Made by a program: the position numbers and the translations under genes. Positions 8,608 through 42,138 of a stretch of 64,000 nt of DNA are shown here, in pieces. Under the pieces are notes generated by a model, which was given only the letters and a program-made list of their open reading frames with translations, did no database searches and had not been told where the DNA came from. The stretch is from an uncultured Verrucomicrobia subdivision 3 bacterium. GTDB lineage: Bacteria > Verrucomicrobiota > Verrucomicrobiia > Limisphaerales > UBA11358. Location of the stretch: the NCBI GenBank assembly GCA_903827955.1, contig CAIKKJ010000151.1, forward strand, positions 7,642 to 71,641, read 5' to 3'. How positions within the stretch are numbered: position 1 is the first letter of the stretch; the number at the start of each line of letters is the position of its first letter.

Positions 8608-11139
8608 TTATTTTCCACCCGCGAGAATTTTTTCGCGTCCGGTCTTGAATTCCTCGGCGCTGATTTTGCCGGCCATGTAATCGTTCGTCAGGGCGGCGAG
8701 TTTTTTTGTTTTTGCCGGCGAGAGGATGGGCGCATTTTTGGGCGCTTCAACCTGGTCGGTCTTTTTCTGGAAATCAACGCGGGACTTTTCCTGAGCCTCG
8801 GCGGCAGGGTCGCTGGCGGCGGGCGGATTTTGCGGCGCGGTATTTTCCAACGCGGCCGGCGGCACGTCGTTGGTCGGATCTTCCGTTGGCAGGAGCGCAT
8901 TGAAGAAGCCGTTAGTGTTGCTGCCGTTCTTGAAGGCTTTCAGCTCGCGTTTGCGTTCGGCTTCCACGAGTTTCTTTTCGTATTCGGCATCCTCGGCGGC
9001 GGCGCCGGACACGCCGGGCAGGCGCTGCGATTCTTTGATGGTGTTTTTTGCGGCGAGCGCCGGCGTCTTCAACACCGTGGGGCGCATCAGCACGATGAGT
9101 TCCTTGCGGTCCTTGGCGTCGCTGCGCGTGGTGAACAGATTTCCAAGCAGGGGAATGTCTGACAGGAACGGCACGCCGGATTTGCTGGTGGACTTGTCGG
9201 ACTTGATGAACCCGCCGAGCATCACGGTATCGCGGTCGCGGACGGTGATGGAAGTGTTGAGCGTGCGCTTGATGGTGTTGGGCACTTCGCCGACGTTGGC
9301 GATGGTGGTGGTGCCGTTGAAATCGTCGATCTCCTGCTGGATGTCCATCGAGACTTCGCCGTCAGGATTGATGAACGGTGTCACATCCAATTCCACACCG
9401 ACGGAGAGCTGCGAATAGGAATTGCCATAGCCATAGCCGCCGCCGCCGCCGCCGTAGGAGCTGGTGACGTAGGGTTTGGTTTCACCGACGAAGAATTGCG
9501 CCGGCTTGGCTTGCGAGGTCTGGATGCGCGGGCGTTGAATGATGCTGGCGTGGCTGTCGGATTCCGCCGCCGTGAGCGCCACGTCGTAATTTGGCCCGAT
9601 GTTGCCGAAGTAGCTCAGGCCGCCGGGGAGTGAATTGCCGAAGCCGCTGCCGCCGTTGGTGCCGATGCCCGTGCCGGAAAGGGTGGAGGAAATGGACTGG
9701 ATCAAGCCGGACGAATTGTAATTGGTGGTGAGTGTCTGGATGACATTCATGAATGACTGGCCGTTGTTCATCCCGCCGCCGCCGATGACGCCGGAACCGA
9801 GGTTTTTGGGATTTTGAGCCGCCGACATGCCGAGTTTGAAACTGTTGCCGATGGTCACGTCCATGATGACTGCTTCAATCAAAACCTGCGCGAGCGGCAC
9901 GTCGAGCTTGGCGATGATTTCCTTGATCTGCGCCAAGTCCTGCCGCGTGGCGTAAATCAACAGCGTGCTGCTGCTTTCGTTCGGAATGATTTTTGTCTGG
10001 CCGAACAACTGGATTTGATCCTGTCCGCCGCCGCCGCCGCCACCGCTGCCGCCGCCGGCCTTGGCGATGATGTTGTTCAGCCGCTGCGCAAAGGTTGAGC
10101 CCGTGCTCGGTGTGCCATTGGGACTGGGCACGCCGGTGGAACGCGCGCCAAACGCGCCGCCGCTGCCACCAATCCCACCACCACCGAGACCGCCCGAGCC
10201 TTGATAGCCACCGCCGCCCAGGCTGCCACCCATGCTGGACATGCCGCCACTGCGCGAACCAAAGCCGCTGATCTGACCGCTGCCCGCGCTCTGACCGATG
10301 CTTACCGTCGCGCCACCGCCGCTGCCGCCGAGGCTGTTCAACGCGGACGCAATCTCATCCACCTTCGCGTAACGGATCGGAATGACTTCAGAGATGTATT
10401 CTGTCGGCACGCTCACGTCAATCTGGTCGATCATCTCGAGCATGCGCTTGATGTTTTCCGCGTAGTCGCGCATCACGAGAATCCCGTTGTCATCAATGCC
10501 TAAAAGTCCGCTGGGCAATTTGGCAAACGGCTGGATGAATGGAATCATCAGGCTGGGTTTCACATATTTCAACTGGGCGACGTGCGTGATGTAGGAACCC
10601 ATGTTCGGGAGATTGGTCGAGCCGGAACGATCCAGCTCTGCGCCGACGGTGTTGGCCTGGTCGGACGGCACGGCTTTCACAAACTTGTCACCGATGTTGA
10701 CGACGGAAATGTTGTTGAGCGCGAGCATCGCCTGCAAGGCCTGGATGGCCTCGGTCTTCGTTAGCGGCGTCTGCGTTTTCAAAACAATTTTTCCATCCGG
10801 CAACGCCGCGTGCAGCACCGTGCGGTTCACCAGCTTCGCATAAATGTCCAACACTTGGGCCACGTCGGCGCTGGTAAAATCAATCGTGCCTTGCGGAATC
10901 ATTTCTTCCGGCGGTGCGCTGGCGGTGGCAGCCGGTGTCGCACCGGGTGCGGGCAGGGCCGGTGCGTTGCGTTGTTGGTAAAGCGGCTGGCGACGCTGAC
11001 CGAGTCCGCCACCCGGCGCGGCGGCGGCGGTGGCAGCGCCGGCGGGTGCGGGTGTTGCCGGGGCGGCGGGCGGCGGCACTTGGGCCAGGAGCGTGAGGCC
11101 GGTCAGGGCCAGAAATAGTGCGAGCAGGGTCGTTTTCAT
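8608..11139 (-). CDS. secretin (GspD/PilQ family) with ~100-aa Gly-rich insert and charged C-terminal tail
   Basis: 843 aa with a signal peptide, N0/N-type domains and the hallmark secretin C-domain motif GVPFLSDIPLLGNLF...ELIVLMRPTVL. A Gly-rich insert covers residues 271-373 (nt 10021-10329). A Lys/Glu-rich tail follows the pore domain. Confidence 0.9.
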   Translation of the reverse strand: MKTTLLALFLALTGLTLLAQVPPPAAPATPAPAGAATAAAAPGGGLGQRRQPLYQQRNAPALPAPGATPAATASAPPEEMIPQGTIDFTSADVAQVLDIYAKLVNRTVLHAALPDGKIVLKTQTPLTKTEAIQALQAMLALNNISVVNIGDKFVKAVPSDQANTVGAELDRSGSTNLPNMGSYITHVAQLKYVKPSLMIPFIQPFAKLPSGLLGIDDNGILVMRDYAENIKRMLEMIDQIDVSVPTEYISEVIPIRYAKVDEIASALNSLGGSGGGATVSIGQSAGSGQISGFGSRSGGMSSMGGSLGGGGYQGSGGLGGGGIGGSGGAFGARSTGVPSPNGTPSTGSTFAQRLNNIIAKAGGGSGGGGGGGQDQIQLFGQTKIIPNESSSTLLIYATRQDLAQIKEIIAKLDVPLAQVLIEAVIMDVTIGNSFKLGMSAAQNPKNLGSGVIGGGGMNNGQSFMNVIQTLTTNYNSSGLIQSISSTLSGTGIGTNGGSGFGNSLPGGLSYFGNIGPNYDVALTAAESDSHASIIQRPRIQTSQAKPAQFFVGETKPYVTSSYGGGGGGYGYGNSYSQLSVGVELDVTPFINPDGEVSMDIQQEIDDFNGTTTIANVGEVPNTIKRTLNTSITVRDRDTVMLGGFIKSDKSTSKSGVPFLSDIPLLGNLFTTRSDAKDRKELIVLMRPTVLKTPALAAKNTIKESQRLPGVSGAAAEDAEYEKKLVEAERKRELKAFKNGSNTNGFFNALLPTEDPTNDVPPAALENTAPQNPPAASDPAAEAQEKSRVDFQKKTDQVEAPKNAPILSPAKTKKLAALTNDYMAGKISAEEFKTGREKILAGGK

Positions 11140-13138: not shown

Positions 13139-13141
13139 GAA

Positions 13142-14893: not shown

Positions 14894-15027
14894 TTAAGTC
14901 CAGTTTGAACAACTGGGGGCGCGAAAAGTTGCAGATTTTGTTGGAATTATCAAACCCGGAGTTCGTCAATGAAACGCTTGGAAACTGCCAATTTGCCTGC
15001 CAGCGCTGGTTCTGTTAAATCTATGCC

Positions 15028-28918: not shown

Positions 28919-30419
28919 TGCGGAAGACCGCGCCGCGCGGCTCGTTGGGCAGGCACGCGATGTCCCAGCCGTGCGCGTGGACGATTTGTTGCACAACGGC
29001 GAGGCCGAGGCCGGTGCCTTTTTGGTGCGTGGTGAAATAGGGTTTGAATATTTCCGCGCGGTTCGCCGCCGTCACGCCGGGGCCGTCATCACGGACTTCC
29101 ATGACCGCTTCGTTTTTTTCCGCGCGGGAAATGGCGAACTGGATTTTTCCATTTTCACCGACAGCCTGGATGGCGTTGATGAGCAGGTTGAACAGCACCT
29201 GTCGTAGCAATTGTTCATCGGCTTCCACCATCAGCGGCTCGCCACCGACCTCGATGCGCAATTTTTTTTCCTCGATGTCAAAGCCCAGCGTGCGGACCAC
29301 TTCGCTGGCAATGGCGGTGGGCGAAACTTTGGCGCGGCGCACTTCGCGCGGCCGCGAGTAGTTGATGAATTCCGTGAGCTGCGCGGTGACCTTGTCGGTT
29401 TCGCCAATGATGATGCGGGATTTTTCCTGCGCGTCCGGCGGTGCACCGGCGGCGCGGGCGAGCATCTGCGCCTGGCCGCGAATGATGTTGAGCGGGTTGC
29501 GCGTCTCGTGCGCGAGGCCGGCGGCGGCAAGGTTCAATTCCTTCAGGTGCGAATTTTGCTCGCTCGCGCGCACGAGGCGGATTTGCAATTCAGAGGTGCG
29601 GGCAATGTTGCGCCACGCGAGGCCCGCGCCGAGCGCGGAGATGCCGGCGAAAAATCCGATGACGCAGCGCAGCCACCAGTCGTGCGTGCAGGTGGCGCGG
29701 AAATTTTCCGTGGACATGACGAGCACGAGGCCATGTAACTCGCGCTTGGCGGCGAGCGCCTTGAAGTCGGCGTCGCTCATGCCGCGCATCCACGGCGGAC
29801 GGCGGTTGCCACCGCGCGGGCGTTCCCCTTCGGGCGGCGGCGCGGGCATTTCAACTTCGCCAGCGACATTGGTCGGCGGCGGTGGAAAATTGGTTGGCGA
29901 AATACTGTTCCGTCCGTCGCGGGGAAAACTGTTGGTCAGGTTGCGAAACGACGGCAGCACGACGGTGGGGTTGTTCGTCACGCCTTCGGGCGTCACGCTA
30001 GCGCCTTCGACGGGCAGGACGAAGACGACGTTTTCTTCGGACCAGCGTTCGCTTTCGCCAACGGATTCGCGCGCGAGCAAATTAGTCTGGCCGGCGGAGA
30101 CGACGGTGTCGCCCTCGCTATTGAGCAGGCCGAGGGCGAGCAGCGGGCTGGTGCTGACGAGGGCATTGGTGCGGACGCGGGCGAGTTCGTTCAGCACGGG
30201 GTCGAGGCGATCTTGAAACAACGCGCCGCGAAACCGCAAGGCCCGCGTGACGGCGCTCAAGGTGCTGGCGATTTCGTGCGAGCGATTTCGCAAATCCGAT
30301 TTTGCGGCTTCAACGACGCGGCGATGTTCCGTGACCTGCCACGCAACGACGAGCAGCCACGCGCCCAGCAGCAGCGTGCCGACCCAGAGGCCTCGTTGTT
30401 CGCGGTTCATGCGGGGCAA
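28893..30419 (-). CDS. sensor histidine kinase (HisKA + HATPase_c), no cognate regulator in window
   Basis: 508 aa with two TM segments (LWVGTLLLGAWLLVVAWQV; CVIGFFAGISALGAGLAW). H-box GLAHETRNPLNIIRG, N-box LLINAIQAV, G-boxes DDGPGV and GTGLGLAVV. It starts 22 nt after the secretin gene on the same strand. Confidence 0.88.
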   Translation of the reverse strand: MPRMNREQRGLWVGTLLLGAWLLVVAWQVTEHRRVVEAAKSDLRNRSHEIASTLSAVTRALRFRGALFQDRLDPVLNELARVRTNALVSTSPLLALGLLNSEGDTVVSAGQTNLLARESVGESERWSEENVVFVLPVEGASVTPEGVTNNPTVVLPSFRNLTNSFPRDGRNSISPTNFPPPPTNVAGEVEMPAPPPEGERPRGGNRRPPWMRGMSDADFKALAAKRELHGLVLVMSTENFRATCTHDWWLRCVIGFFAGISALGAGLAWRNIARTSELQIRLVRASEQNSHLKELNLAAAGLAHETRNPLNIIRGQAQMLARAAGAPPDAQEKSRIIIGETDKVTAQLTEFINYSRPREVRRAKVSPTAIASEVVRTLGFDIEEKKLRIEVGGEPLMVEADEQLLRQVLFNLLINAIQAVGENGKIQFAISRAEKNEAVMEVRDDGPGVTAANRAEIFKPYFTTHQKGTGLGLAVVQQIVHAHGWDIACLPNEPRGAVFRITHLKLAA

Positions 30420-30440: not shown

Positions 30441-31667
30441 TTATTTTTTCTTCGCCGGAGTGCTTTCGAGGAAGCGGTTCAATTCCTGTTCCTCGACGGT
30501 GGTCTTGATGATGGTGGTCTGGCCGGTCTCGCCATTGGACATGCTGCCCAGTTGCGCGGGGGACTGGACGATGTGCGGCGTTAGGAACATGAGCAATTCC
30601 GTTTTGGAAGATGACTTCGCGCTTTCTTTGAAAAGATTTCCAATCAACGGGATGTCGCCGAGGAACGGCACTTTGTTGTCCGAAGAACTTTTGCCGCTGG
30701 AAATCAGGCCGCCGATGACGACCGGCTGCGCGTCGGGCGTGACCACGACGGTGTCGGCGGAACGGATGTCCAGATAGGGTGCTTCTGCGCCATTGCCGAT
30801 CGCCTGTTTCAGGGTGCTGTTCACTGAGGAAATCTGCGGTTGCACGATCATTTCCACGAGGTCGTTCGCACCGACAAACGGTGTCACGTTCAAAATAATG
30901 CCCACGTCCGTGTAGGTCACATTCACGATCGGAATCGTGGTGTTGCCGGAGTTTTGGTAAGAAACGCTGGTGGGCAAAGGCACGGACTGGCCGACGACGA
31001 TTTTCGCCAGCTGTCCGTCGCGCGCAAGGATGGACGGCCGCGACAAAACTTGTGAACGTCCGGCGGTCGCGATCGCCTTCAGCGTCGCCTGAAAATCGCT
31101 GCCGGCAAGCTGGAACAGACTGTTGGCTCCCCCAGTGCTGGTCGGCGCGAGCGAAGTTCCCAAAACGCCGCCGAGCGCGGTGAGGTTGGTCACCACCGAG
31201 TTGCCGCCGGAAAGTCCCAGCACATTTTCTGCGCTGGCGGTGAGGTTCTTGCCAGCGCCTCCCGTATAACCGCCCTCGAGGCCGATGTCCGACCCGTCGT
31301 TGCGTTGCACTTCGAGGAACACCACTTTGATGAGCACCTGCCGCTTGGGCGCGTCGAGATTTTGCAGCACGCTGCGGATTTGCGCAGCGGTCGTCTCGTC
31401 GGCGATGACCACGAGGTTGTGCGTCTGCGGATCTACCGTGATCGTGGCGCTGCCGACGGAACCATTGTTGTTGTAGGTGGAGGAAGTGGTGCTGCGGTTG
31501 GCGTTGTTGCCGCCAAAGCCGCCGCCGCCGAAACCACCAAAGCCGCCAAAGCCGCCGCCACCAAAGCCACCACCGCCGCCGAAACGCTGTTGCGCGTGCA
31601 ACGTCAGCGTGGCGCAAACCACCGCGAGACCCGCGAGGGAAATTTTTTTAACAAGATTCGTTTTCAT
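30441..31667 (-). CDS. secretin pore-domain protein (C-terminal half of a split GspD)
   Basis: 408 aa with its own leader (KKISLAGLAVVCATLTLHA) and a GGF-rich stretch. This is followed by a half N-domain (ATITVDPQTHNLVVIADETTAAQIRSVLQNLD) and the secretin domain with KVPFLGDIPLIGNLF...ELLMFLTPHIV. Confidence 0.85.
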   Translation of the reverse strand: MKTNLVKKISLAGLAVVCATLTLHAQQRFGGGGGFGGGGFGGFGGFGGGGFGGNNANRSTTSSTYNNNGSVGSATITVDPQTHNLVVIADETTAAQIRSVLQNLDAPKRQVLIKVVFLEVQRNDGSDIGLEGGYTGGAGKNLTASAENVLGLSGGNSVVTNLTALGGVLGTSLAPTSTGGANSLFQLAGSDFQATLKAIATAGRSQVLSRPSILARDGQLAKIVVGQSVPLPTSVSYQNSGNTTIPIVNVTYTDVGIILNVTPFVGANDLVEMIVQPQISSVNSTLKQAIGNGAEAPYLDIRSADTVVVTPDAQPVVIGGLISSGKSSSDNKVPFLGDIPLIGNLFKESAKSSSKTELLMFLTPHIVQSPAQLGSMSNGETGQTTIIKTTVEEQELNRFLESTPAKKK

Positions 31668-31697
31668 AAGATTTTCAAGTTGATGATTCGTTGGGCA

Positions 31698-33104
31698 TCA
31701 GAATCCGCGTCCGCCGCCGGTGCGGTTGCCGGAGCTTGAGCCAAAACCCGAACTGCTGCTGGACGAGCTGGTGGTTGTGGCGTTGTTGACTTCACGCTGC
31801 TGCAGCGCGCTGTTTTGTGATGAGCCGGTGGTGCTGCGCGAATTATTTCCCTGAAACATATTTTGCAGCACCTGCGCCGCCTGCTGCGGGTCGGCATTGT
31901 CCATGTGGAACACAAAAACCTTCTGGTCGCGCGTCGAGGACACATCGAGGTCTTTCATCATGCCGGCGATTTCCTCCATCAAATCTTTCGGCGCGGTCAC
32001 GATCACGGCTTGGATGCGCGAGTCCGCCACGGCGGAAACCTGCGTCGCTTTTTTGATGCGGTCGTTGGAAGTGCTGCCGCTGCCGCTACCACCGCCGCCC
32101 ATCATGCGCTGGAAAAATCCGCCCGGCCCGCCGCCGCCACCACCAAAGCGCGTCGGCGTTTGCGTGCCGCCCGAACTGCTGCTCGGGAAAATGCTACTGA
32201 GTTCCGTAGCCACATCCTGCGGATTCGCGTATTGCAGGCGGAACACGCGGATCTCCGTCTCGGCCTCCGCGCTGTTGTCAATCGCCCGGATGATTTCTGC
32301 GAGATGCCGGATGTTTGATTGTGTGTCGGTGATGACGATGGAATTGCCCGCTTCGTTCGCCACGACCGTGGCCTGCGGTGAAACAAACAGGGATAAATCC
32401 GAAACCAGTTGCCGCGCTTCAACGAAGCGGATGGGAATAATCTGTGTCACGATCTCGGCGTTCTTGGGAATCTCCGACGGGTTGTTGCCGGACTTCACCG
32501 GGATGTCGCGCGTCTTCGCGTCGTTCTTGTCCACGATGGTCAGCGTGCGTCCGTCGCGGATGGCTGCGTAACCGTTTTTGTTCAGCATGGAATTCAGTAA
32601 GTCCACCGCTTCATCCTTCGTCAACGGCTGGCTGCTGATGACGCTCACACTGCCGCGGACCTGCGTGTCGAGCACGATGATGAAGCCGGCGGCGTCGCTC
32701 AAATAATTCAGCACCATGTCGAGCGGCGCATTTTTGAAATTCATCCGCAGCTCGTTCGCGTTGGTGCCGGCGGCTTCCGGCGGCGTGAAGGCCGATTGAA
32801 TCTTCGGCGTCTCCCCGCCCAGCGGTTTCGTCGGCTGGATGGTTGCGGAGGTTTTGGGCGAATTGGAACTGTTGTCCTGGCCGTTGGCTTCCGATCCAGC
32901 CAGCGCGGCAATCACCTCCGGCGGCGGGGGCGGCAGCGAACCCGGGTCGGGCGGTGTGCCTGCTGTGGCGTCGGCAGCCGGCGGCGCGGGCTGTTCGGCA
33001 GCGGGCGCGTTGTTGTTGCCGTTATCCGGCGCGGGCTGAGCGGCGGCCGGGAATAGCAGTCCGGCGGCGCCCAGCGCGATGAGGGTGGAGAGAATTTTTT
33101 TCAT
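31698..33104 (-). CDS. secretin N-domain protein (N-terminal half of a split GspD)
   Basis: 468 aa with a signal peptide (LIALGAAGLLFPAAA) and an N0/STN-like segment (NFKNAPLDMVLNYLSDAAGFIIVLD...). Ring-building N-domains follow (IPIRFVEARQLV..., RVFRLQYANPQDV...). It ends after KVFVFHMDNADPQQAAQVLQNMF plus a Ser/Gly tail, with no pore domain. Confidence 0.8.
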   Translation of the reverse strand: MKKILSTLIALGAAGLLFPAAAQPAPDNGNNNAPAAEQPAPPAADATAGTPPDPGSLPPPPPEVIAALAGSEANGQDNSSNSPKTSATIQPTKPLGGETPKIQSAFTPPEAAGTNANELRMNFKNAPLDMVLNYLSDAAGFIIVLDTQVRGSVSVISSQPLTKDEAVDLLNSMLNKNGYAAIRDGRTLTIVDKNDAKTRDIPVKSGNNPSEIPKNAEIVTQIIPIRFVEARQLVSDLSLFVSPQATVVANEAGNSIVITDTQSNIRHLAEIIRAIDNSAEAETEIRVFRLQYANPQDVATELSSIFPSSSSGGTQTPTRFGGGGGGPGGFFQRMMGGGGSGSGSTSNDRIKKATQVSAVADSRIQAVIVTAPKDLMEEIAGMMKDLDVSSTRDQKVFVFHMDNADPQQAAQVLQNMFQGNNSRSTTGSSQNSALQQREVNNATTTSSSSSSSGFGSSSGNRTGGGRGF

Positions 33105-33724
33105 TGGTTTTCCTTGGCGCGTTTTTCCATGAGCTTTTTCAAAATGTCGTTGCCTTCTAAATTTGCGGACGGCGCGGTGGCGGGAGATTCCGTCGCGTCG
33201 GTGGATGAATTGCCAGCTTCGGTTGTCGCCGGAGTTTCGCTGGCGGGCGCGCTGCCGGATGAATCATCGCTCAGCTTCCAGGCGCTGCCATCCTGATGCA
33301 TCTGGTCGCCGATTTTCATCGTGATTTCTTTTTTGTCCTTGTCCGCCAGTGTGACCGCGCTCGCGGAAATTTCCTTTACCGTGTAGCCCGCAATTTCATC
33401 GCCGACCGCGAGAATTTTTTTCATCTCGGAATCGTTCGCGTTAAAAAAAGCAAACAGCCCCTTCTCGTAACTCATCGTGCCGACCAGCGCGATGAACGGC
33501 GTGCCCGCACTTCTCGTCCGCGTTCTGGTCCGCGTCCGCGTCGGTGCGGAGTGCGTGTTATGCGGCACACGGTTCGGGTCAAAAATATTTCGGTCCGTGA
33601 TGAAGCTGCTGAACTTCGCGTAGTCCGCATCGCCGGGCGAATTGTTCGACTGCGCCCGTGCGGAGAAATTTCCTGCGACGGCGAGCGCTGCCAGCAAAAT
33701 AATTTTAGTGCGCGTGAATTTCAT
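33101..33724 (-). CDS. secreted PilP/GspC-HR-like protein
   Basis: 207 aa with a signal peptide and an RT-dipeptide run (PTRTRTRTRTR). The segment FIALVGTMSYEKGLFAFFNA...KILAVGDEIAGYTVKEISASAVTL...ITMKIGD resembles the PilP/GspC HR beta-domain pattern. Its position between the GspM-like and secretin genes fits this role. The assignment is tentative. Confidence 0.4.
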   Translation of the reverse strand: MKFTRTKIILLAALAVAGNFSARAQSNNSPGDADYAKFSSFITDRNIFDPNRVPHNTHSAPTRTRTRTRTRSAGTPFIALVGTMSYEKGLFAFFNANDSEMKKILAVGDEIAGYTVKEISASAVTLADKDKKEITMKIGDQMHQDGSAWKLSDDSSGSAPASETPATTEAGNSSTDATESPATAPSANLEGNDILKKLMEKRAKENQ

Positions 33725-34257
33725 TTTTTCTCCTTCGCCGCGAGCGCCAGACCATTTACTTCCAGGCCGAGCGTTAGTTGTTGTCCCGTGCTGTCGTGCG
33801 TGGTTAGTTCCACCGTGTCGAGTCGCAGAGCGACCGGTCCGCGTTCCACGTCGTAAAGAAACCGGCTCAATGTGCCGAGGCTGCCTGCCGCCTCCACGCG
33901 GCAGCCGAGCGTCATGTAATTCGTCGAATCATTTTTCCACTGCGGCATGATGCTCGTGATCTGCGCGCCGCTGTCGCCCGCCCAGCCGTCGAATGACTTC
34001 AATAACTGCTGCTCCGCGAGTGAGGTGTTCATCGGCAAAGCATTCGCGCGTTTTGTGTCCCAGTTGTCGCGGATGGCGGCCTCGCGCTTGAGCAGCGCGT
34101 TGCCGTCGGCGACTTTCAAACGCAATTCCTTCAACTGCGCTTGCCGCGATGACCACCAACCCGCCAGCGGCGTGGCGATGAAATTCACCGCAACGTAAAG
34201 CGCCACGACGCCAATCGTCAGCGCCACCAGAAAGTCCTGCCGGTTTTTAATTTTCAT
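33721..34257 (-). CDS. GspM/PilO-like inner-membrane protein
   Basis: 178 aa with one N-terminal TM segment (FLVALTIGVVALYVAVNFI), a coiled-coil and a small C-terminal domain. It has 4-nt overlaps on both sides. Confidence 0.55.
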   Translation of the reverse strand: MKIKNRQDFLVALTIGVVALYVAVNFIATPLAGWWSSRQAQLKELRLKVADGNALLKREAAIRDNWDTKRANALPMNTSLAEQQLLKSFDGWAGDSGAQITSIMPQWKNDSTNYMTLGCRVEAAGSLGTLSRFLYDVERGPVALRLDTVELTTHDSTGQQLTLGLEVNGLALAAKEKK

Positions 34258-35702
34258 TGCGCGCCTCCGTTGCCGTATTGGAAATCAAACGTGAATTGCA
34301 TCGGCGATTTACCGCGCTGCTGGCTCAAGTGCAGTTCGCTGACGCCCGGCACCGTGCGGAGTTTCGCCTGCATCGCCAGCAGCGCCGCGATGTCGCGCGC
34401 GTTGCCCGAGCAACTTACCGTCTTGCCTTCACGCACCTCGATGGTCTTGGCCGTCACCGAGCCGTCCTCGGGAAACGCCAGCGTGAGCTGCCGCAAAATC
34501 GCCAGCCCGCGATACGAGCCGTCATACCACGGCCGGTAAAAACGAATCTGATCCTGGATGTTTTGCAGCTCCGTGACCTTCGCCGCCATGTGCGACCACT
34601 GCGCGCCAAATCGCCAGAGCTGGATTTGCTGGAACAGAAAAATTGCCAGCACGATGACCGCCACGCCCGCCGCCGCCGCGCCGATGGTGCCAAATTTTCC
34701 CGATGAATATTTTTTCACCAACTGCTGCAGCACGTTTGGCTTCGGCGGCAGAAATTCAAACGCCGGTTTCCGTTCCGCCAAAATATTCGCCGCGAGGCTG
34801 AACGCCGCCGACAGCGAAACTTCCGGCGGCAGCGAAACTTCCGGCGGCAGCGTCACGCCAAATTCATCCGGCGCGTAACCCGCAACCACCTCGGTCTGCA
34901 AGCCCATCGGCTCGAACCGCAGTTCCATTTCGTCCGCCAGTTGCCGCGCTAGATTGCTCGGGCCGAAGATACGGATGCGTTTGACCGCGTCGCGCAATGC
35001 GCCGGGCAACTGGCCGAGCGTGACGCGGGCTTCGCGCGACACGATGCTGGCGTGCAGCGTGGCGCGGCCGCCGATATTTTCCACCGCGCCTTCCAGCGCG
35101 CGCAACACCGCTACGCCGCCACCGACCGCCACTTGCAGGCCGACGGTGCTTTCGCCGATGACGAGCGTGAGCGCACCGCCGTTTTTCTCCAGCGCGGAAA
35201 TTCCCAGCGCAAAACTCACCGGCTTTAATTTTGCCAGCGCCAAAATTTGTTCGAGCGAACCGATATGCGTGTTCGGAATGCCCGCGAGCAGCACAAATTT
35301 TTTGTCGCCCGCCAGCGCGCAGCGTGAATCGGAAATCTGCAACGACGCCACATCTGCGTGAAAGTTTTTCTCCGCCTCAAGTTGCAACAAACTCGCCGCA
35401 TCCGTGTCTGGCAACGGCGGCAGTTCCGTCTGCGCGGTCAAAACCCAGCGCAATGGCAGGCCAACGACGCAGTTTTTTTCACGCACACCGGCGGCGTCAA
35501 GGTGGTTGCGAATTTCGCGGGCAACGAGTTCCGGCGCGGCGGTGAGCGGGTCAAGCGTGAGCTGTGCGGAAAAACTTTGGAGCGTTTGCAGCGCGCCGTT
35601 GGCGCGTTTCAGCACGACGCCGTCCAGCCGGCTGCCGTCCAGCGCGAGGCCGAGCACCGAAGTCAGCTTTTGGCGTTTGCCGATTTTTGAATCAGGTTTC
35701 AT
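34254..35702 (-). CDS. GspL-like (PilM-PilN fusion) assembly protein
   Basis: 482 aa with a cytoplasmic actin-like half, a FEFLPPKP segment (INLLP-like), a TM segment (IGAAAAGVAVIVLAIFLF) and a periplasmic PilN-like end. It contains an in-frame 18-nt tandem duplication (PPEVSLPPEVSL). Confidence 0.65.
   Translation of the reverse strand: MKPDSKIGKRQKLTSVLGLALDGSRLDGVVLKRANGALQTLQSFSAQLTLDPLTAAPELVAREIRNHLDAAGVREKNCVVGLPLRWVLTAQTELPPLPDTDAASLLQLEAEKNFHADVASLQISDSRCALAGDKKFVLLAGIPNTHIGSLEQILALAKLKPVSFALGISALEKNGGALTLVIGESTVGLQVAVGGGVAVLRALEGAVENIGGRATLHASIVSREARVTLGQLPGALRDAVKRIRIFGPSNLARQLADEMELRFEPMGLQTEVVAGYAPDEFGVTLPPEVSLPPEVSLSAAFSLAANILAERKPAFEFLPPKPNVLQQLVKKYSSGKFGTIGAAAAGVAVIVLAIFLFQQIQLWRFGAQWSHMAAKVTELQNIQDQIRFYRPWYDGSYRGLAILRQLTLAFPEDGSVTAKTIEVREGKTVSCSGNARDIAALLAMQAKLRTVPGVSELHLSQQRGKSPMQFTFDFQYGNGGAQ
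34812..34847. repeat. 18-nt perfect tandem duplication inside the GspL-like CDS
   Basis: cagcgaaacttccggcgg x2 (followed by a partial cagcg). It encodes PPEVSLPPEVSL and is in frame. Confidence 0.9.
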
Positions 35703-37120
35703 TGCGTATTCTTTGCGAGCAAATCCGTGCGGGCTTTTTCGCCGAGCGCCCAGCCGAGCCGGCTCAAGTCCTGGCGATAAACAATTTTTGGTGCGCCGTC
35801 GCAGGTGTCGAAAATAAATTTTACGCGGCGATAACCGCGCCCGAACGCGCCGACCGCTGCGATGTCCGCCGTGAATTGAAAACTCTTCGTGGTGATCAAA
35901 TTGCCCGCGCGCAACGCCGTCACCACGCCGCTGTTGCCGAGCGCATCATAGACCCATGCGACCGAATTTAAGTTGCCGGCGTTTTGTTCGCGATAAGTCA
36001 CCAGCGTCTGCGCGGCACTAGACGCAGTCTGTTCGTCCACGTTGTTCAGGCCGGAGAACAGCGCGGTCAGCACATCCTGGCTGGCGGTGTTCACGTTCAC
36101 GCGACCGCGAAAATAAGTATTCGTGCTGGTCGTCGTCTCGTCGGAAATTTTGGCGAAGTCATCCGCGCTCCAGCCTTGCCCGCGCCAGAACGCGGCGAAA
36201 TCGAAGATACCATTGAACGGCGTGTTGCGCGGGTTCTGGCGATTGCCGTGAATTTGCGTGTAGATGGTTCCCGCGCGCTGGTCGGGACTGCCCGCGCCGT
36301 TGTCGCGCAGCAAGGCGGTGAGCTGGCTTTGCGTGACGGTGTTCACGTTCGTCAACTGCGTGCCGTCGGAATGAAAATTTGGCTCGCGCGTCCAGACAGT
36401 GACAAATTCAAACAGGCCGGGATCAAGTTCGCCGTTGCCGTTTACATCTTTTTCACTCTTGTCGAGCACGCCATTGCGGTTGATGTCTTCGCCCGCAAGC
36501 AAATCCACGGTCGCGCCATAAACAAGGCGAAGTTCATCCACGCTCTCGAACGGCGCGTATTTGGGTGAATAGCCGAGCGAGGAATAATTCAGGGACAGCT
36601 GCGTGTTCGTGTTGCGCCAGTCCACGATGGCCTGCGCAAAATCCATGGTCATGCCGGGCAGATAGGAAATCGTGTTGGTGTTGGCGGTGTTCAAATTGAT
36701 TTTGCCGCCCTCGTCAATCAAACCAAAAAATGGTTCGCTGGAATTCGCCTCCGCTGGGTCGCGGCCGATGAGCCAGAATTTGGCGTCGCCGATTTCCACC
36801 ACCGCGCTTTTGAACTGCGTCGGGTCGGGAACTGCGCCGTTGGTCGAGTAATTTTCCAAAACGTAACCGACGTAGCGCGCCGCGCCTTCGATGGCCTGCT
36901 CGGCGGCGATGCCGTTCACGCGATTATCCGCCGCGCGCAGCTCGAAGGTCATCGCATGGGCGAAATAAAGCGCGATGCTTACGAGGCCGAGGCAAATCCA
37001 CAAAACGATGACGAGCACCGAAGCGCATTCATTTTTTTTGAACCGCGAAATACGCGAAAGCAATCCAGCTTTGAAAACTGGATTATCCGTTCGCATATTT
37101 TGTGTGGTTCGCAGTTGCAT
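35699..37120 (-). CDS. gspK: GspK-like minor pseudopilin
   Basis: Hydrophobic N-terminal helix without Glu5 (SVLVIVLWICLGLVSIALYFA), a large globular body, and helix-hairpin-helix-like segments (NVNTASQDVLTALF). I chose the start at MQLRTT (37120). The ORF-track start at 37174 would overlap the upstream gene by 50 nt. Confidence 0.7.
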   Translation of the reverse strand: MQLRTTQNMRTDNPVFKAGLLSRISRFKKNECASVLVIVLWICLGLVSIALYFAHAMTFELRAADNRVNGIAAEQAIEGAARYVGYVLENYSTNGAVPDPTQFKSAVVEIGDAKFWLIGRDPAEANSSEPFFGLIDEGGKINLNTANTNTISYLPGMTMDFAQAIVDWRNTNTQLSLNYSSLGYSPKYAPFESVDELRLVYGATVDLLAGEDINRNGVLDKSEKDVNGNGELDPGLFEFVTVWTREPNFHSDGTQLTNVNTVTQSQLTALLRDNGAGSPDQRAGTIYTQIHGNRQNPRNTPFNGIFDFAAFWRGQGWSADDFAKISDETTTSTNTYFRGRVNVNTASQDVLTALFSGLNNVDEQTASSAAQTLVTYREQNAGNLNSVAWVYDALGNSGVVTALRAGNLITTKSFQFTADIAAVGAFGRGYRRVKFIFDTCDGAPKIVYRQDLSRLGWALGEKARTDLLAKNTQ

Positions 37121-37124
37121 GTGT

Positions 37125-37826
37125 TTATCCGCCGCTGGTCGTGCTAAAAACCATGTTCGTCCGCGCCACGACATCCAGCGGCACGATGATTTGCACCGGC
37201 TGCGCCTGCGCGTTGCCGGCCATCTGGATGGCCACCTTCACGGCGAGCGGTAGGTTGGTGTTCACTGCCGTCGCGCTCGTCGTGTCCCAGGCATCCTGCC
37301 AAATCGCGCCGTCGTAGCAGGAAAATTTCACGCTCTCCACGCCGCCGAGCATGAATTGTTCCTCTACCGTCGGCGAGTTGAACGTCAAAAGATTCCGCGC
37401 GATGCTGCGATACAAATCCCGACCGATCGCGCCGGTCGTCGTTGGCATTTTCAATTCGTAAGTCACGCGCTGGATTTCGCCCCACGGCTGGCTGGCGCTC
37501 AATGCGCCCGTCGTGGTGAACATTTCCACCGCCACCGGATCGCTGACACCGACGCTCGTGAGGCCGTTACCCGCGCGGAAACCGCCGGACAAAACTTTGC
37601 TCGTGCCGTTCGTCGGCGCGACGCAGCCCTGCAAATCGCGTTTCAAAAAAGAAACCATCGAATCCACCGGCGTCGCGGCGTCCACCATATTCGCCGTGTC
37701 GTCGCGCAAATGCAGCGCGGTGAACAGCACGAGGTTCGCCGTGAGCAAGACGAGCGAGGCGACGCCGATGGCGAGAATCATCTCGATCAGCGTGAAGGCA
37801 CTCGTGTTGTTCGTTTTCATTTTCAC
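37125..37826 (-). CDS. GspJ-like minor pseudopilin
   Basis: 233 aa with a prepilin-type N-terminus MKMKTNNTSA/FTLIEMILAIGVASLVLL. Size and position match gspJ. Confidence 0.65.
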   Translation of the reverse strand: MKMKTNNTSAFTLIEMILAIGVASLVLLTANLVLFTALHLRDDTANMVDAATPVDSMVSFLKRDLQGCVAPTNGTSKVLSGGFRAGNGLTSVGVSDPVAVEMFTTTGALSASQPWGEIQRVTYELKMPTTTGAIGRDLYRSIARNLLTFNSPTVEEQFMLGGVESVKFSCYDGAIWQDAWDTTSATAVNTNLPLAVKVAIQMAGNAQAQPVQIIVPLDVVARTNMVFSTTSGG

Positions 37827-38254
37827 TGCGTCAAATTTATTCCCGCGGTCTGCGACGGCGAACTCGCCAGCGTGCTCATTTTCACCGAATAATCTTTACC
37901 CTGCGCGGAATACGTCACCTCCGCCGTCAGCATCTGCATCGAATCCTGCGGCCAGTTCTGACTCGACAGCTTCCACCGAAAATCCAAAACGCCTTCCGTG
38001 ATGGTTCCGCTCCGCTGGCCGTTGCTCCAGTTCGACGTCACCAAACTTTCGTTCAACACCCGGTCCGCCACCCGCGCCGCCTCGCTCTTGCGCGCGGCGA
38101 CTTCGCCGCCGAGGCCCGCGACGTGCAGTGCCTCGACCGCTACCGGAATCACGATGGCGAGAAACAGCATCGCCGCCAAAACTTCCGCCAGCGTGAACGC
38201 CTGGCAACAGCGGCGCGCGGCAATAATTTTATTTTCCGCTCGCGCCAATTTCAT
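37823..38254 (-). CDS. GspI-like minor pseudopilin
   Basis: 143 aa with a prepilin-type N-terminus ...RRCCQA/FTLAEVLAAMLFLAIVIPV. Size and position match gspI. Confidence 0.6.
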   Translation of the reverse strand: MKLARAENKIIAARRCCQAFTLAEVLAAMLFLAIVIPVAVEALHVAGLGGEVAARKSEAARVADRVLNESLVTSNWSNGQRSGTITEGVLDFRWKLSSQNWPQDSMQMLTAEVTYSAQGKDYSVKMSTLASSPSQTAGINLTQ

Positions 38255-38774
38255 AACCGGTCCGTGTTTTCGTCTCTACAAGCATCCGGCCGAATCCGTC
38301 CGCGTCCACCAGTTGCAATGTCTGCGGACTGTTCTCGTCAACCGTGCCGTCCGGCAAAAATTTTATCGCCGGCAAATTGTTGAACGTCGTCTGCGCGCCC
38401 GTGCCGAGATTTTGCACTGACAACTGCACGGTTGAATCCACCGTCAAATTTTCCGCTTTCGCATCGCCGTTCTGGCCGCTCGTTTCGGCGGACACGCCGT
38501 AGCCGCCGCCCTTTTCATCAATCCACAGCAGCATCGGCATACCTTCGGACACCGCACGGCTCTGCGCCGCGTGCATCAGCGCCATCAGCCGCCGCGCCTC
38601 GGAATCCAGCGCGCGGCCCCGGATAAATTTCGACATTGCGGGCACGGCGATGGACGTGATGATCACCAACAGCGACAAGACGAGGATCAGTTCGATCAGC
38701 GTGAAGGCGCGGCGGCGAAAATTATTTCTGCCAGTTGCCAATGTCATCGTCCGTGCCTTCCTTCGCATCCGCAC
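38229..38774 (-). CDS. GspH-like minor pseudopilin
   Basis: Prepilin-type N-terminus ...FRRRA/FTLIELILVLSLLVII followed by the GspH-like ...FIRGRALDSEARRLMALMHAAQSRAV. The start is uncertain (38774 or 38747); both overlap the gspG end. Confidence 0.62.
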   Translation of the reverse strand: MRMRRKARTMTLATGRNNFRRRAFTLIELILVLSLLVIITSIAVPAMSKFIRGRALDSEARRLMALMHAAQSRAVSEGMPMLLWIDEKGGGYGVSAETSGQNGDAKAENLTVDSTVQLSVQNLGTGAQTTFNNLPAIKFLPDGTVDENSPQTLQLVDADGFGRMLVETKTRTGYEIGASGK

Positions 38775-39156
38775 CGGCGGACGACAAATCGTAGGAACTG
38801 CCGTTGTGTTTGCCCGGAAAATAATAAATGTAAGGATTGCCCCACGGATCGAGCGGCAGCTTCGGTGGATCGAAATACGGCCCGTGCCAGTTCTTCGCGT
38901 TGCTCGGCGCGACGAGCAGGTCGTTAAGGCTCTTCGGATAAAAGCCGTTGTCCACTTCGTATTGGCCGAGCGCGGACTTGATGCCGCCGTTGATGTCCGT
39001 CGTGGCGGCGGTGACGCGGGCGCGTTCGCTCTGGCCGGCGATTTTCGGAATCACCAGCGCCGCGAGGATGCCGATGATGACGACCACCAGCATGATTTCC
39101 GTGAGCGTGAAGCCCGATGTTTTTTTTATGATTCGATTTTGGATTTTCATTTTCAT
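38722..39156 (-). CDS. gspG: major pseudopilin GspG
   Basis: 144 aa. Sequence ...KKTSG/FTLTEIMLVVVIIGILAALVIPKIAGQSERARVTAATTDINGGIKSALGQYEVDNGFYP...DPWGNPYIY is the canonical GspG sequence pattern. Confidence 0.9.
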   Translation of the reverse strand: MKMKIQNRIIKKTSGFTLTEIMLVVVIIGILAALVIPKIAGQSERARVTAATTDINGGIKSALGQYEVDNGFYPKSLNDLLVAPSNAKNWHGPYFDPPKLPLDPWGNPYIYYFPGKHNGSSYDLSSAGADAKEGTDDDIGNWQK

Positions 39157-39165
39157 AATTCGTTT

Positions 39166-40407
39166 TTATTTGATGTATTGGCTCATCGAAAGCACCGGCA
39201 GCAACATGCCGATGAAAATTGTCCCGATGAATCCCGCGATAAGAAACAGCAGCAGCGGCTCGGCGAACGCCACGGCGGTTTTCAAATTACGGTCGAGATC
39301 ATTCTCCGTGCCGGCGGCGAGGCGCACGAGTTCGGCATCGAGCTTGCCGCTTTCTTCGGCGACAGAAATCATTTCAATCACCGAGCCGGTGAACAGCACG
39401 CGGCAGTCGGACAAACTTTGCCCCAGCCGTCCGCCCTGTTGCACGCGCTCGATGCTCTGGCCGACGGCGTCCACGAGAATCTGATTTCCTATCGAACGGC
39501 GTGCGACGTTTAAGCCTTGCACCAGTGCCACGCCCGCGCCGAGCAGCGTGCCGAGCATCCGGCAAAAACGCGCCATGGCAAATTGCGCGATGAGCGGGCC
39601 GACGAGCGGCGTTTTCAAAATCAAACCTTCCCAAGTGCGCCGGCCTTTTTCGGAAACAAACCACGCGCGAAGCAAGAACGCGAGGCCGACGAGCGCCGCC
39701 GCCACGAGGAGGCCATACGACCGCACGATGTGGCTCGCGCCGATGATGATTTGTGTGATGAGCGGCAGCGCGGTGTGGAGGTTGTCAAAAATTTTCTGGA
39801 ACTTCGGAATGAAAAACGTCAGCAGCAGCGTGAGAATTCCGATGGCCAGCACGAGCAAAATGCACGGATACAACATCGCCGTGAGCACTTTGGATTTCAG
39901 GTCTTTTTCACGCGCCTGAAATTCCGCGATTTGCGCCAGCACCACGTCGAGAAAACCGCCCGCCTCGCCCGCCTCGACCATCGCGGTGTAAACGCGTGGA
40001 AATGTGTCTGGCGATTTCGCCATCGCGTTGGAGAGCGACAGGCCGTCCACCACCGCGTCGTGAATCTCTTTCCACTTCGCCTTCGACGCCGCGCTCGACG
40101 CTTCTTTCTGCAAAATCACCAGCGCGCGGCTCAACGGCACGCCTGCCGCGAGCAAACTGGACAGCAGGCGCGTGAAATTTTCCAGTTCCTTCGCGGAAAC
40201 TTTTTTGGACTCGAACTTGAAGGAGAAGTTTCCCGCCGCCGTCGCGCCGTTTTTTTTTGCCGCCTTGGCAGCGGACTCGGTCACGCTCACCGGACGCAGG
40301 CCAAACGTCTCAATCTGCCGCAGCGCGTCGGCGCGGCCGGCGGCTTCCAGCGAGCCCTCGGCAAATTTACCGTCGGCTTGCAATGCTCTATAAGAAAAAG
40401 TCGGCAT
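39166..40407 (-). CDS. gspF: T2SS inner-membrane platform protein GspF
   Basis: 413 aa with a duplicated GspF/PilC cytoplasmic domain plus three TM segments (LYPCILLVLAIGILTLLL, GLLVAAALVGLAFLL, LLLFLIAGFIGTIFIGMLLP). Confidence 0.92.
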   Translation of the reverse strand: MPTFSYRALQADGKFAEGSLEAAGRADALRQIETFGLRPVSVTESAAKAAKKNGATAAGNFSFKFESKKVSAKELENFTRLLSSLLAAGVPLSRALVILQKEASSAASKAKWKEIHDAVVDGLSLSNAMAKSPDTFPRVYTAMVEAGEAGGFLDVVLAQIAEFQAREKDLKSKVLTAMLYPCILLVLAIGILTLLLTFFIPKFQKIFDNLHTALPLITQIIIGASHIVRSYGLLVAAALVGLAFLLRAWFVSEKGRRTWEGLILKTPLVGPLIAQFAMARFCRMLGTLLGAGVALVQGLNVARRSIGNQILVDAVGQSIERVQQGGRLGQSLSDCRVLFTGSVIEMISVAEESGKLDAELVRLAAGTENDLDRNLKTAVAFAEPLLLFLIAGFIGTIFIGMLLPVLSMSQYIK

Positions 40408-40413
40408 GGAAAA

Positions 40414-42138
40414 TTATTTGCCCGCGACGGCTATGCTTGCCGCCGATTCGCCACCGGTTTTTTCAGAACGTTCAACTTCTTTTGCCGTCGTGACGCTCAA
40501 AACTTCCTCGACCGTCGTGATGCCTTGCGCGACGAGCCGCCAGCCGTCTTCGGCGAGCGTTTTCATGCCGCCTTTGCGCGCGGCGCTACGGATTTGATCG
40601 GTGGAGGCAGACTTCAAAATGAGCTGGCGGATTTCTTCGTCCGTATCCATCCATTCAAAAATCGCGTGGCGACCGAAGAAGCCGGTGTTGCGACATTCGC
40701 GGCAGCCGACGGATTTGTAAATGAGGTTGTCCGCCGGAATTCCGAGTTTGATTTTGAACTGCTGCGCCCGCGCGGAATCGTCCACTTGCTTACAATGCTT
40801 GCAGAGCACGCGCACGAGGCGTTGTGCCAACACGGCTTCGAGCGAAGATGCAACCAAATAAGGTTCGACGCCCATGTCCACGAGGCGAGTGAGCGCACCG
40901 GGCGCGTCGTTCGTGTGCAGCGTGGAAAAAACCAAGTGACCGGTGAGCGACGCCTGCACCGCAATTTGCGCCGTCTCGGCATCGCGGATTTCGCCGATGA
41001 GAATCACGTCGGGGTCATGACGCAAAATCGAGCGCAAGCCCCGCGCGAAGGTCAGGCCGGATTTTTCATTCACCTGAATCTGGTTCACGCCTTTGAGCTG
41101 ATACTCAACCGGGTCTTCCACCGTGATGATTTTGCGAACCGCGTCGTTGATTTCGTTGAGCGCGGTGTAGAGCGTGGAAGTTTTTCCAGAACCCGTCGGG
41201 CCGGTGACCAAAATAATTCCGTGCGGCAGTCCGAGCACATTTTTGAAATGCTCATACTCGCGCGTGTTCATGCCGATCTGGCCGAGACCGCGCAGCGTGG
41301 AGTTTTGCCGGAGCAGACGCATCACGACCGCCTCGCCGTGCAACATCGGAATCACCGAAACGCGGATGTCCACTTCCGCCGCGTCAATGCGCACTTTGAT
41401 GCGACCGTCCTGCGGCAGGCGTTTTTCCGCGATGTTGAGGTGGCTCAAGATCTTGACGCGCGAAACGATGGCGGGCTGAAATTGTTTGAGCTGCGGCGGC
41501 ACAGGCACTTCCTGCAACTCACCGTCAATACGATAGCGGATCTTAAATTCATCCTCGAATGGTTCGAGGTGGATGTCGGAGGCGCGCAGTTCAATCGCGT
41601 CTTTCAAAACTTGGTTGACGAAGCGGATGATGGAGGCTTCGTCTTCTTCCCCGCCGTCGAGATTGTTGTTTTCGGAATTTTCATCAACGACCTGAATGCC
41701 CTTTTCTTCTTCGAGCGTGCCGATGGTATCGGCGCCGACACCGAGGCGTTTTTTGATTTCGCGCTGGATGACTTCGCTCGTGGCGAGAATCGGCTTAAGG
41801 TTCAGGCCGGTCAAAGTTTTCAGCGCGTCCAAACCTTGCGTGGCGAACAGGCGGCTGGTGGCAATCTCTACCACGCCGTTGTCGCGCTTGAGCGGAAGCA
41901 ATTCCTCCTTGAGCAAAATGCGCGCGGGAAAAAGTGAAAGCAGCTGGCGATCCGGCTCCACGTCATCGAGCGTGGTGAAGCCGAGGCCGTATTCGTTCGC
42001 GAGCCAGCGGAGAATTTCTTCCTCGCTGGAAAAATTTTTGCCCGCGAGCGTTTCGGCGTCGAACGCGGACAACTGCCGGGACGCAACCATGCGTCCCAGC
42101 AGTTCCTTCGATGAATCTTGAACCGTTGATGCGGCCAT
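40414..42138 (-). CDS. gspE: T2SS ATPase GspE
   Basis: 574 aa with a T2SSE_N-type N-terminus, Walker A GPTGSGKTS, VILIGEIRD, GHLVFSTLHTNDA and the tetracysteine CKHC...CREC. Confidence 0.93.
   Translation of the reverse strand: MAASTVQDSSKELLGRMVASRQLSAFDAETLAGKNFSSEEEILRWLANEYGLGFTTLDDVEPDRQLLSLFPARILLKEELLPLKRDNGVVEIATSRLFATQGLDALKTLTGLNLKPILATSEVIQREIKKRLGVGADTIGTLEEEKGIQVVDENSENNNLDGGEEDEASIIRFVNQVLKDAIELRASDIHLEPFEDEFKIRYRIDGELQEVPVPPQLKQFQPAIVSRVKILSHLNIAEKRLPQDGRIKVRIDAAEVDIRVSVIPMLHGEAVVMRLLRQNSTLRGLGQIGMNTREYEHFKNVLGLPHGIILVTGPTGSGKTSTLYTALNEINDAVRKIITVEDPVEYQLKGVNQIQVNEKSGLTFARGLRSILRHDPDVILIGEIRDAETAQIAVQASLTGHLVFSTLHTNDAPGALTRLVDMGVEPYLVASSLEAVLAQRLVRVLCKHCKQVDDSARAQQFKIKLGIPADNLIYKSVGCRECRNTGFFGRHAIFEWMDTDEEIRQLILKSASTDQIRSAARKGGMKTLAEDGWRLVAQGITTVEEVLSVTTAKEVERSEKTGGESAASIAVAGK

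Follow-up and report, generated by a model that had tools for sequence, protein, structure and literature searches.

The stretch of DNA analysed here, called the window, comprises 64,000 nucleotides (nt) of contig CAIKKJ010000151.1 (assembly GCA_903827955.1) from an uncultured Verrucomicrobia subdivision 3 bacterium. At the end of an operon for a type II secretion system (T2SS) it carries two adjacent open reading frames (ORFs) on the minus strand, gspD-N (ORF-N) and gspD-C (ORF-C), which encode the periplasmic and the outer-membrane part of a GspD secretin. Type II and type III secretion, type IV pili and filamentous phage all use a secretin as their outer-membrane gate. An earlier note on this DNA had described two leader-bearing ORFs at 31698-33104 and 30441-31667, and both were recovered on the minus strand. 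From its N-terminus onward, ORF-N consists of a signal peptide, a Pro/Ala-rich linker, the domains N0, N1 and N2, the opening half of N3 and a tail of low complexity. In ORF-C, a separate signal peptide and a GGF-rich N-terminal stretch precede the closing half of N3, which is followed by the pore domain and the C-terminal helices. The features of the pair are as follows (aa, amino acids).

31698..33104, minus strand: gspD-N (ORF-N), 468 aa, periplasmic N-module half, TIGR02517 positions 1-298
33033..33104, minus strand: predicted signal peptide of ORF-N, MKKILSTLIALGAAGLLFPAAA followed by Q, assigned by eye from the sequence, limits approximate
32550..32744, minus strand: N0 domain, aa 121-185 of ORF-N (Pfam PF21305, 57.9 bits, cut-off 27)
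32274..32447, minus strand: N1 ring-building domain, aa 220-277 of ORF-N (Pfam PF03958, best stretch)
31941..32252, minus strand: N2 domain, aa 285-388 of ORF-N (Pfam), interrupted by a Gly-rich insertion
31857..31931, minus strand: N3a, the beta1-alpha1 half of N3, aa 392-416 of ORF-N, RDQKVFVFHMDNADPQQAAQVLQNM (Secretin_N positions 1-25)
31701..31856, minus strand: Ser/Thr/Asn/Gly low-complexity tail of ORF-N, aa 417-468, from the sequence and comparison with one-chain loops
31698..31700, minus strand: TGA stop codon of ORF-N, preceded by the C-terminal ...GGGRGF
31668..31697, minus strand: AT-rich intergenic spacer of 30 nt (10 codons), in frame with both ORFs
30441..31667, minus strand: gspD-C (ORF-C), 408 aa, outer-membrane C-module half, TIGR02517 positions 280-599
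31593..31667, minus strand: predicted signal peptide of ORF-C, MKTNLVKKISLAGLAVVCATLTLHA followed by QQR, a leader conserved in homologues
31449..31592, minus strand: GGF-repeat and Ser/Asn-rich stretch, aa 26-73 of ORF-C, ending in a conserved YNNNGxVGxA motif
31350..31448, minus strand: N3b, the beta2-beta3-alpha2 half of N3, aa 74-106 of ORF-C (Secretin_N positions 25-69)
30564..31073, minus strand: secretin pore domain, aa 199-368 of ORF-C as the Pfam stretch (PF00263, 155.8 bits)

The start codon of ORF-C is the ATG at 31667, directly after the spacer. A search of the 30 nt between the halves for promoter-like and terminator-like sites gave none, and an internal promoter or terminator separating ORF-N from ORF-C was therefore rejected. 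RNA structure at the start codon of ORF-C was not above that of shuffled controls (z = +1.4).

Profile searches divided one secretin between the two ORFs. Pfam found two complete Secretin_N stretches in ORF-N, a partial one in ORF-C (aa 50-110, profile positions 25-69 only) and three in the joined sequence of both. When N3a and N3b were spliced by a short linker, the match extended over Secretin_N positions 1-66 of 69 with 41.6 bits (gathering cut-off 28.2). N3a aligns with beta1-alpha1 of N3 in one-chain homologues and N3b with the second half of the same domain; the barrel begins around aa 107 of ORF-C. The NCBIfam model of GspD, TIGR02517, matched ORF-N with 199.9 bits at positions 1-298 and ORF-C with 238.1 bits at positions 280-599, and its cut-off of 351 bits was failed by each ORF alone and exceeded only by the summed score. 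For the pair, the GspD model outscored those of PilQ, MshL, SctC and HofQ. A structural model of a joined construct (see below) had GspD, PulD, ExeD and XcpQ as its best Foldseek matches (E ~1e-23); RcpA ranked only 18th with low coverage, and no BON or Tad-type N-domain was found in ORF-C with Pfam. Owing to the complementary TIGR02517 coverage and the Pfam half-domain matches, ORF-N and ORF-C are colinear, complementary pieces of one GspD, far beyond chance.

The anatomy proposed in the earlier note agrees with these data. ORF-N has the signal peptide (by eye), N0 and ring-building N-domains (Pfam) and ends after a beta-alpha half, KVFVFHMDNADPQQAAQVLQNMF at aa 395-417, which is followed by the 51-aa tail rich in Ser, Gly, Thr and Asn. 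ORF-C starts with the leader KKISLAGLAVVCATLTLHA at aa 7-25 and a 48-aa GGF-rich stretch, and supplies the missing beta-beta-alpha half, with ATITVDPQTHNLVVIADETTAAQIRSVLQNLD starting at aa 74, as well as the pore (PF00263). The claim that the break lies inside a loop between two halves of an N-domain likewise held up in the Pfam half-matches, the one-chain alignments and the TIGR02517 coverage: as judged from sequence, the break sits in a long disordered loop between beta1-alpha1 and beta2-beta3-alpha2 of N3. Short motifs are retained on both of its sides. In the tail of ORF-N a QNSALxxR motif is conserved and a terminal Phe or Tyr is frequent in closer relatives, while in ORF-C homologues the YNNNGxVGxA motif immediately precedes beta2. 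The Gly-rich insertion in N2 (aa 309-350 of ORF-N, containing GGFFQRMMGGGG) occupies the alpha1/beta2 position, the same as the split loop of N3, and this position seems to be a recurrent site of low-complexity inserts.

The split is a property of the lineage. The exact ORF-C protein is recorded on 15 separate contigs, and at the two of these places that were inspected the 468-aa ORF-N and the 30-nt gap recur as well. Among the homologues of ORF-C, the best 120 (57-100% identity) all measure 377-444 aa and have the conserved leader, and the best 120 homologues of ORF-N all measure 455-500 aa and contain N0 and Secretin_N without a pore domain; some of the latter are named 'secretin N-terminal domain-containing protein' by NCBI. 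Two loci with 61% (L001) and 57% identity (L002) keep the gene order J-K-x-x-x-N-C, with the halves in different frames. When GTDB was scanned with one genome for each species, 80 loci came back, nearly all labelled Verrucomicrobiota (Limisphaerales, Pedosphaera, 'subdivision 3' and a few Opitutaceae). Both halves were readable in 76 cases, the window included, with ORF-C identities from 73% down to 40%. The halves were separate ORFs in 76/76 loci and fused in 0/76. The spacer had a median length of 27.5 nt (0-70 nt in 73/76 loci, range -4 to 202 nt) and a GC content of 0.44 as compared to 0.61 in the flanking coding sequence.

Conservation, expressed as the fraction of sequences with the consensus residue in 74 paired sequences, amounted to 0.62 for N3a and 0.64 for N3b, next to 0.61 and 0.67 for the two halves of N2, 0.74 for N0 and 0.64 for the pore domain. 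By this measure, N3a and N3b are both evidently under constraint, like the halves of the intact N2. Conservation across a large verrucomicrobial clade thus extends to both halves of the secretin, to the second leader and to the short, AT-rich spacer. The check suggested in the earlier note, a comparison of orthologous loci for a conserved split and a conserved second leader, came out positive on both counts.

Some of the loci deviate in detail. Among L018 (6588-6971), L035 (6457-6707) and L049 (6597-6863), two loci from metagenome-assembled genomes (MAGs) have an ORF-N homologue broken about 80-130 codons early by a frameshift or stop, which may be an assembly error, and the third has about 200-260 nt inserted between the halves, possibly including a small ORF. 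Ten loci (L011, L019, L022, L037, L038, L043, L045, L046, L059 and L064) are of the verrucomicrobial type and bear other labels, including Bifidobacteriaceae, Dongiaceae, Haliangiales, Cyanophyceae and Kapaibacterium; they are probably mis-binned contigs or mislabelled MAGs.

The leader of ORF-C homologues consists of an n-region containing Lys or Arg, a hydrophobic core and a conserved ...HA|QQR site, after which the GGF repeats begin. An Ala|Gln-type site after the hydrophobic core was present in 73/76 loci and Lys or Arg in the n-region in 70/76. We infer from these features that ORF-C is exported by Sec and its leader cleaved. A lipoprotein leader, as in liposecretins of the HxcQ type, was considered and rejected: the leader Cys follows a residue other than Gly, Ala or Ser, and a lipobox is lacking. 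This Cys is missing from many homologues, the conserved site being Ala|Gln-Gln-Arg.

An exhaustive search of 1.84 billion cluster representatives with ORF-C as query ranked split-type proteins first, followed by one-chain relatives of 666-1051 aa with 30-43% identity. The one-chain relatives inspected contain N0, N1, N2 (also with a Gly loop), N3 beta1-alpha1, a loop and N3 beta2-beta3-alpha2. Their N3 loop is uninterrupted, 90-130 aa long, rich in Ser, Thr and Gly and often equipped with GGF runs, and none of those inspected has a hydrophobic segment or leader within it. Given these one-chain loops, the tail of ORF-N and the GGF stretch of ORF-C appear to be the two remnants of an ancestral N3 loop. 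In a tree of the C-module (neighbour-joining, midpoint rooting, no support values; 106 sequences, 265 columns), 41/43 split-type sequences formed one pure clade among 63 one-chain sequences, which suggests a single old fission. P0163 and P0150, two short forms with 38-40% identity, are likewise preceded by a gene that ends in N3a and a low-complexity tail. The search further returned giant distant homologues of ORF-C (P0200, P0223, P0226, P0230, P0243 and P0254, with lengths from 1,647 to 4,904 aa among them), in which the secretin pore domain lies at the extreme C-terminus with thousands of residues upstream.

Whether the two chains rebuild N3 was addressed with an AlphaFold model of an artificially joined construct (ORF-N 285-428 plus ORF-C 56-408), using an alignment of 40 one-chain homologues and 36 C-halves. 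The predicted local distance difference test score (pLDDT) was 94-95 for N3a, 86-96 for N3b, above 90 for the pore domain and below 50 for the joining segment; a single-sequence run of a joined construct reached a pLDDT of 34 and is informative for secondary structure only. Column covariation, not corrected for phylogeny, was highest for the block pair N3a-N3b (0.277), followed by N1a-N1b (0.258) and N2a-N2b (0.199). No orphan beta-beta-alpha half that might serve as a cis partner for N3a was found in ORF-N with Pfam. We favour a reconstitution of N3 from both chains, and hold it to be fairly likely, because of the colinearity with the one-chain N3, the conservation of both halves, the missing orphan partner half, the model with its Foldseek matches and the covariation.

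The following course of events is proposed. Both genes would be transcribed together with the gsp operon, ORF-C being translated independently from its own ATG behind an AT-rich, unstructured leader. Each chain would be exported by Sec and lose its own signal peptide. ORF-C would then multimerise into the outer-membrane pore (C-module), and ORF-N would supply the N0-N2 rings (N-module) that reach the GspC/L/M platform. The joining would be non-covalent: the terminal beta-alpha unit of ORF-N would complete the beta-beta-alpha unit of mature ORF-C, giving one N3 per pair of subunits, with the two low-complexity tails as leftover halves of the loop. One-chain secretins are reported to require N3 for assembling their pore (as PMC8134430 states), so the N-half may be an obligatory partner when the pore forms. 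In the phage secretin pIV, the disordered N3 loop is directed to the pore centre (PMC8563730); if the loop considered here corresponds to that of pIV, both free tails would lie in the vestibule.

Taken as a whole, this reading, i.e. a functional T2SS GspD encoded by two adjacent co-oriented genes which arose by an old fission inside the N3 loop and whose chains are joined by N3 completion, is in our view probable. A number of points weigh against it. No Shine-Dalgarno sequence is evident 5' of ORF-C, co-transcription, use of the ATG at 31667 and leader cleavage are predictions from the sequence, and the neighbour-joining tree is a rough one. In the joined model N2b reached a pLDDT of 82-91 while its partner N2a stayed at about 40, the latter because the first 30 residues of the first row of the alignment were misaligned, and a confident half-domain is therefore no proof of packing. 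The model is also prone to reproduce the one-chain fold, as the chain was joined and natural one-chain homologues were part of the alignment, and the covariation was calculated from about 41 effective sequences. These points leave some room for an explanation with a genuine split and two working genes, in which no rebuilt N3 holds the chains together. Under it, ORF-N would be a ring protein of the periplasm, free or bound to the platform, that stacks under the pore by ordinary ring-ring contacts or engages with it only transiently during secretion; N3a would have some other contact to make or would persist as a conserved remnant. Such an arrangement would be compatible with the weak direct support for N3a-N3b packing from model and covariation, with the good score of N2b in the absence of a confidently folded partner, and with the flexibility of one-chain N-modules, for which numbers differing from the 15-fold pore have been proposed (PMC10550240). 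We nevertheless regard it as unlikely, as it has to account for an N3a that is as conserved as intact domain halves in all 74 aligned pairs, that yields a complete Secretin_N match together with N3b and shows the highest covariation with it, and that, as a lone 25-residue beta-alpha unit without a complementary half in cis, is unlikely to be stable.

Explanations that retain a single chain fare worse. The earlier note had pointed out that the two ORFs share a reading frame and are separated by a single TGA and 10 sense codons, an arrangement that would permit a fused secretin to be made by programmed stop-codon read-through or frameshifting. The description is correct for the window, and a single in-frame stop separates the halves in 18/76 loci as well. 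Its significance did not survive the comparison, however: the halves are in the same frame in 24/76 loci, which is the one-third expected by chance (binomial p = 0.81), and the stop codon of the N-half varies, with TAA (41 loci) more common than TGA (32) and TAG (3), so that the shared frame and single TGA of the window are coincidental. Moreover, the spacer ranges from -4 to 202 nt and contains additional stop codons in some loci, no structured RNA was seen at the junction, and the conserved cleavable leader right after the spacer would become an internal hydrophobic segment in a fused chain. A fused product via read-through, selenocysteine or frameshifting was thus rejected on frame, stop-codon and spacer statistics, and we consider it very improbable. 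Still less credence, in fact next to none, is given to a strain-specific pseudogene or a sequencing or assembly artefact, which has the appearance of the in-frame TGA in its favour and nothing else. The recent nonsense mutation and the assembly error that the earlier note had listed as alternatives are excluded by the presence of the ORF-C protein on 15 contigs, by the half-length homologues and by the separate ORFs in 76/76 loci; the split and the second leader recur in every relative examined, down to 40% identity, and both halves are conserved like intact domains. The two-chain secretin, which the note had offered as its first reading, is the one that the conserved split in all 76 loci supports. 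Accordingly, the GspD of this lineage is truly encoded by two genes, an old and widely distributed state in which the cut falls inside N3 and a conserved second export signal is present.

A benefit of the fission can be imagined, namely that it is adaptive by physically uncoupling the periplasmic N-module from the outer-membrane C-module, but we regard this as speculative and rather doubtful. If it were true, the modules could assemble with different subunit numbers, which would resolve the 15-versus-12 symmetry mismatch that a one-chain secretin must accommodate; platform-bound N-rings could dock a pre-formed pore on demand via reversible N3 completion; and the liberated tails, each of some 50 residues and one with many Gly-Phe repeats, could act as a flexible lumenal barrier in the vestibule.

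In its domain content and order the pair equals the canonical one-chain GspD (PulD, XcpQ/XcpD, EpsD; TIGR02517; PDB 5wq7, 6hcg, 5wln), which is also its best hidden Markov model match and its best structural match and takes the same position at the end of the gsp operon. One-chain relatives of the same broad family already have a long disordered Gly/Ser loop inside N3. The pair differs from canonical GspD in that there are two genes and two polypeptides, a second Sec leader and an N3 divided between the chains.

The earlier note was not aware of a described split secretin; two kinds have in fact been reported. In type III secretion systems (T3SS) of the rhizobial type the secretin is split into RhcC1 (NolW) and RhcC2, and HrcIIC1/HrcIIC2 of Pseudomonas syringae are of the same type (PMC3574062, PMC3973906, PMC3459982). 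There, too, the periplasmic N-part and the pore part are separate products and the arrangement is conserved within the lineage. According to Abby and Rocha, however, RhcC2 is a secretin of the Tad/CpaC type with a BON domain which partly replaced the original gene, so that this is not a simple fission. The Rhc genes belong to a T3SS and are non-adjacent, with other genes between them or in different regions, whereas the two genes described here lie 30 nt apart in the operon of a T2SS. Membership in the Rhc-type split was rejected given the lack of a BON domain, GspD as the best family and the gsp operon context.

The closest parallel in kind is the mitochondrial T2SS (miT2SS) of some protists, in which GspD is distributed over several polypeptides (GspD, GspDL and GspDN1-3), two of them half N-domains, and hence shows the same half-domain split (PMC8134430). 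The miT2SS genes are eukaryotic nuclear genes and highly divergent, without N0, GspC or operon context; the pore protein is further truncated and the pieces are not assignable to N1, N2 or N3 (PMC8134430). The split pair, by comparison, resides in a bacterial operon, possesses N0 and has a weak GspC-like gene upstream. No mention of a link to Verrucomicrobia was found in the miT2SS paper (PMC8134430). Gene fission into two chains is also known for another component of a type IV filament machine, the platform proteins TadB and TadC of Tad pili (PMC6668835), which differ in that they are located in the inner membrane and were separated between two whole domains and not inside one. In the open-access papers and bioRxiv preprints covered, no report of a split secretin in a bacterial T2SS or type IV pilus system was found.

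T2SS secretins in bacteria have so far been studied as single chains. The C-module has been defined as N3, pore and optional S-domain (PMC10550240), and the cut described here lies close to where the flexible N-module meets the rigid C-module, offset by one half-domain. The pair offers a natural test of N3 integrity as an assembly checkpoint and could reveal if targeting and assembly of the pore module are possible on its own; it is also relevant to the way in which the 15:12 mismatch to the inner-membrane platform is dealt with. If N3 is indeed rebuilt, this would be a rare case of a protein domain completed in the periplasm from two separately exported chains, in effect a natural system of fragment complementation. 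For the GspDN proteins of the mitochondrial system, which are half-domains, the pair is a bacterial counterpart. On the practical side, surveys that demand a full-length secretin could score these T2SS as lacking gspD or as broken, because neither half reaches the GspD cut-off.

The split pair closes the gspE-to-gspM operon (33101..42138, minus strand), all genes upstream being on the same strand. The last four junctions of the operon are 4-nt ATGA overlaps, and a spacer occurs only between ORF-N and ORF-C. The neighbouring genes and the distant one-chain paralogue are listed below.

40414-42138, minus strand: gspE (Pfam/NCBIfam match)
39166-40407, minus strand: gspF (Pfam/NCBIfam match)
38722-39156, minus strand: gspG-like, by position and N-terminal sequence only
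38229-38774, minus strand: gspH (Pfam/NCBIfam match)
37823-38254, minus strand: gspI-like, by position and N-terminal sequence only
37125-37826, minus strand: gspJ (Pfam/NCBIfam match)
35699-37174, minus strand: gspK (Pfam/NCBIfam match)
34254-35702, minus strand: gspL-like, by position only, without Pfam or NCBIfam match
33721-34257, minus strand: gspM/PilO-like (Pfam/NCBIfam match)
33101-33724, minus strand: gspC-like, weak match
28893-30419, minus strand: histidine kinase gene, directly 3' of ORF-C
8608..11139, minus strand: intact one-chain paralogue secretin, 843 aa, in a second gsp-like cluster

A histidine kinase gene directly 3' of the C-half is also found in the distant relatives L001 (7276-11543) and L002 (7402-10244), where a response regulator of the sigma-54 type is located nearby as well. 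The arrangement points, tentatively, to a two-component regulator that is specific to this T2SS.

The earlier note had cited the intact paralogue (8608-11139) for having the same arrangement in one chain, and the peptides quoted there are present: EVIPIRYAKVDEIASALNSL is followed by a loop of about 100 aa and then by TKIIPNESSSTLLIYATRQDLAQIKEIIAKLD, at the same site of the last N-domain. Its loop contains a ...FAQRLNNII... motif similar to one in the N2 insertion of ORF-N. Apart from N0 and N1 this paralogue has only one further N-domain, the one with the loop of about 100 aa, and behind its pore domain comes an extension of about 150 aa rich in Lys and Glu. The second gsp-like cluster, to which it belongs, continues at 11136-16167. 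In L001, a verrucomicrobial contig of 1.38 Mb, genes for an 85-aa WXG100 protein and a 1,304-aa FtsK/SpoIIIE protein (11807-13233) are situated about 4.5 kb downstream of the split secretin; this WXG100/FtsK pair looks type VII secretion-like, in a bacterium with an outer membrane.

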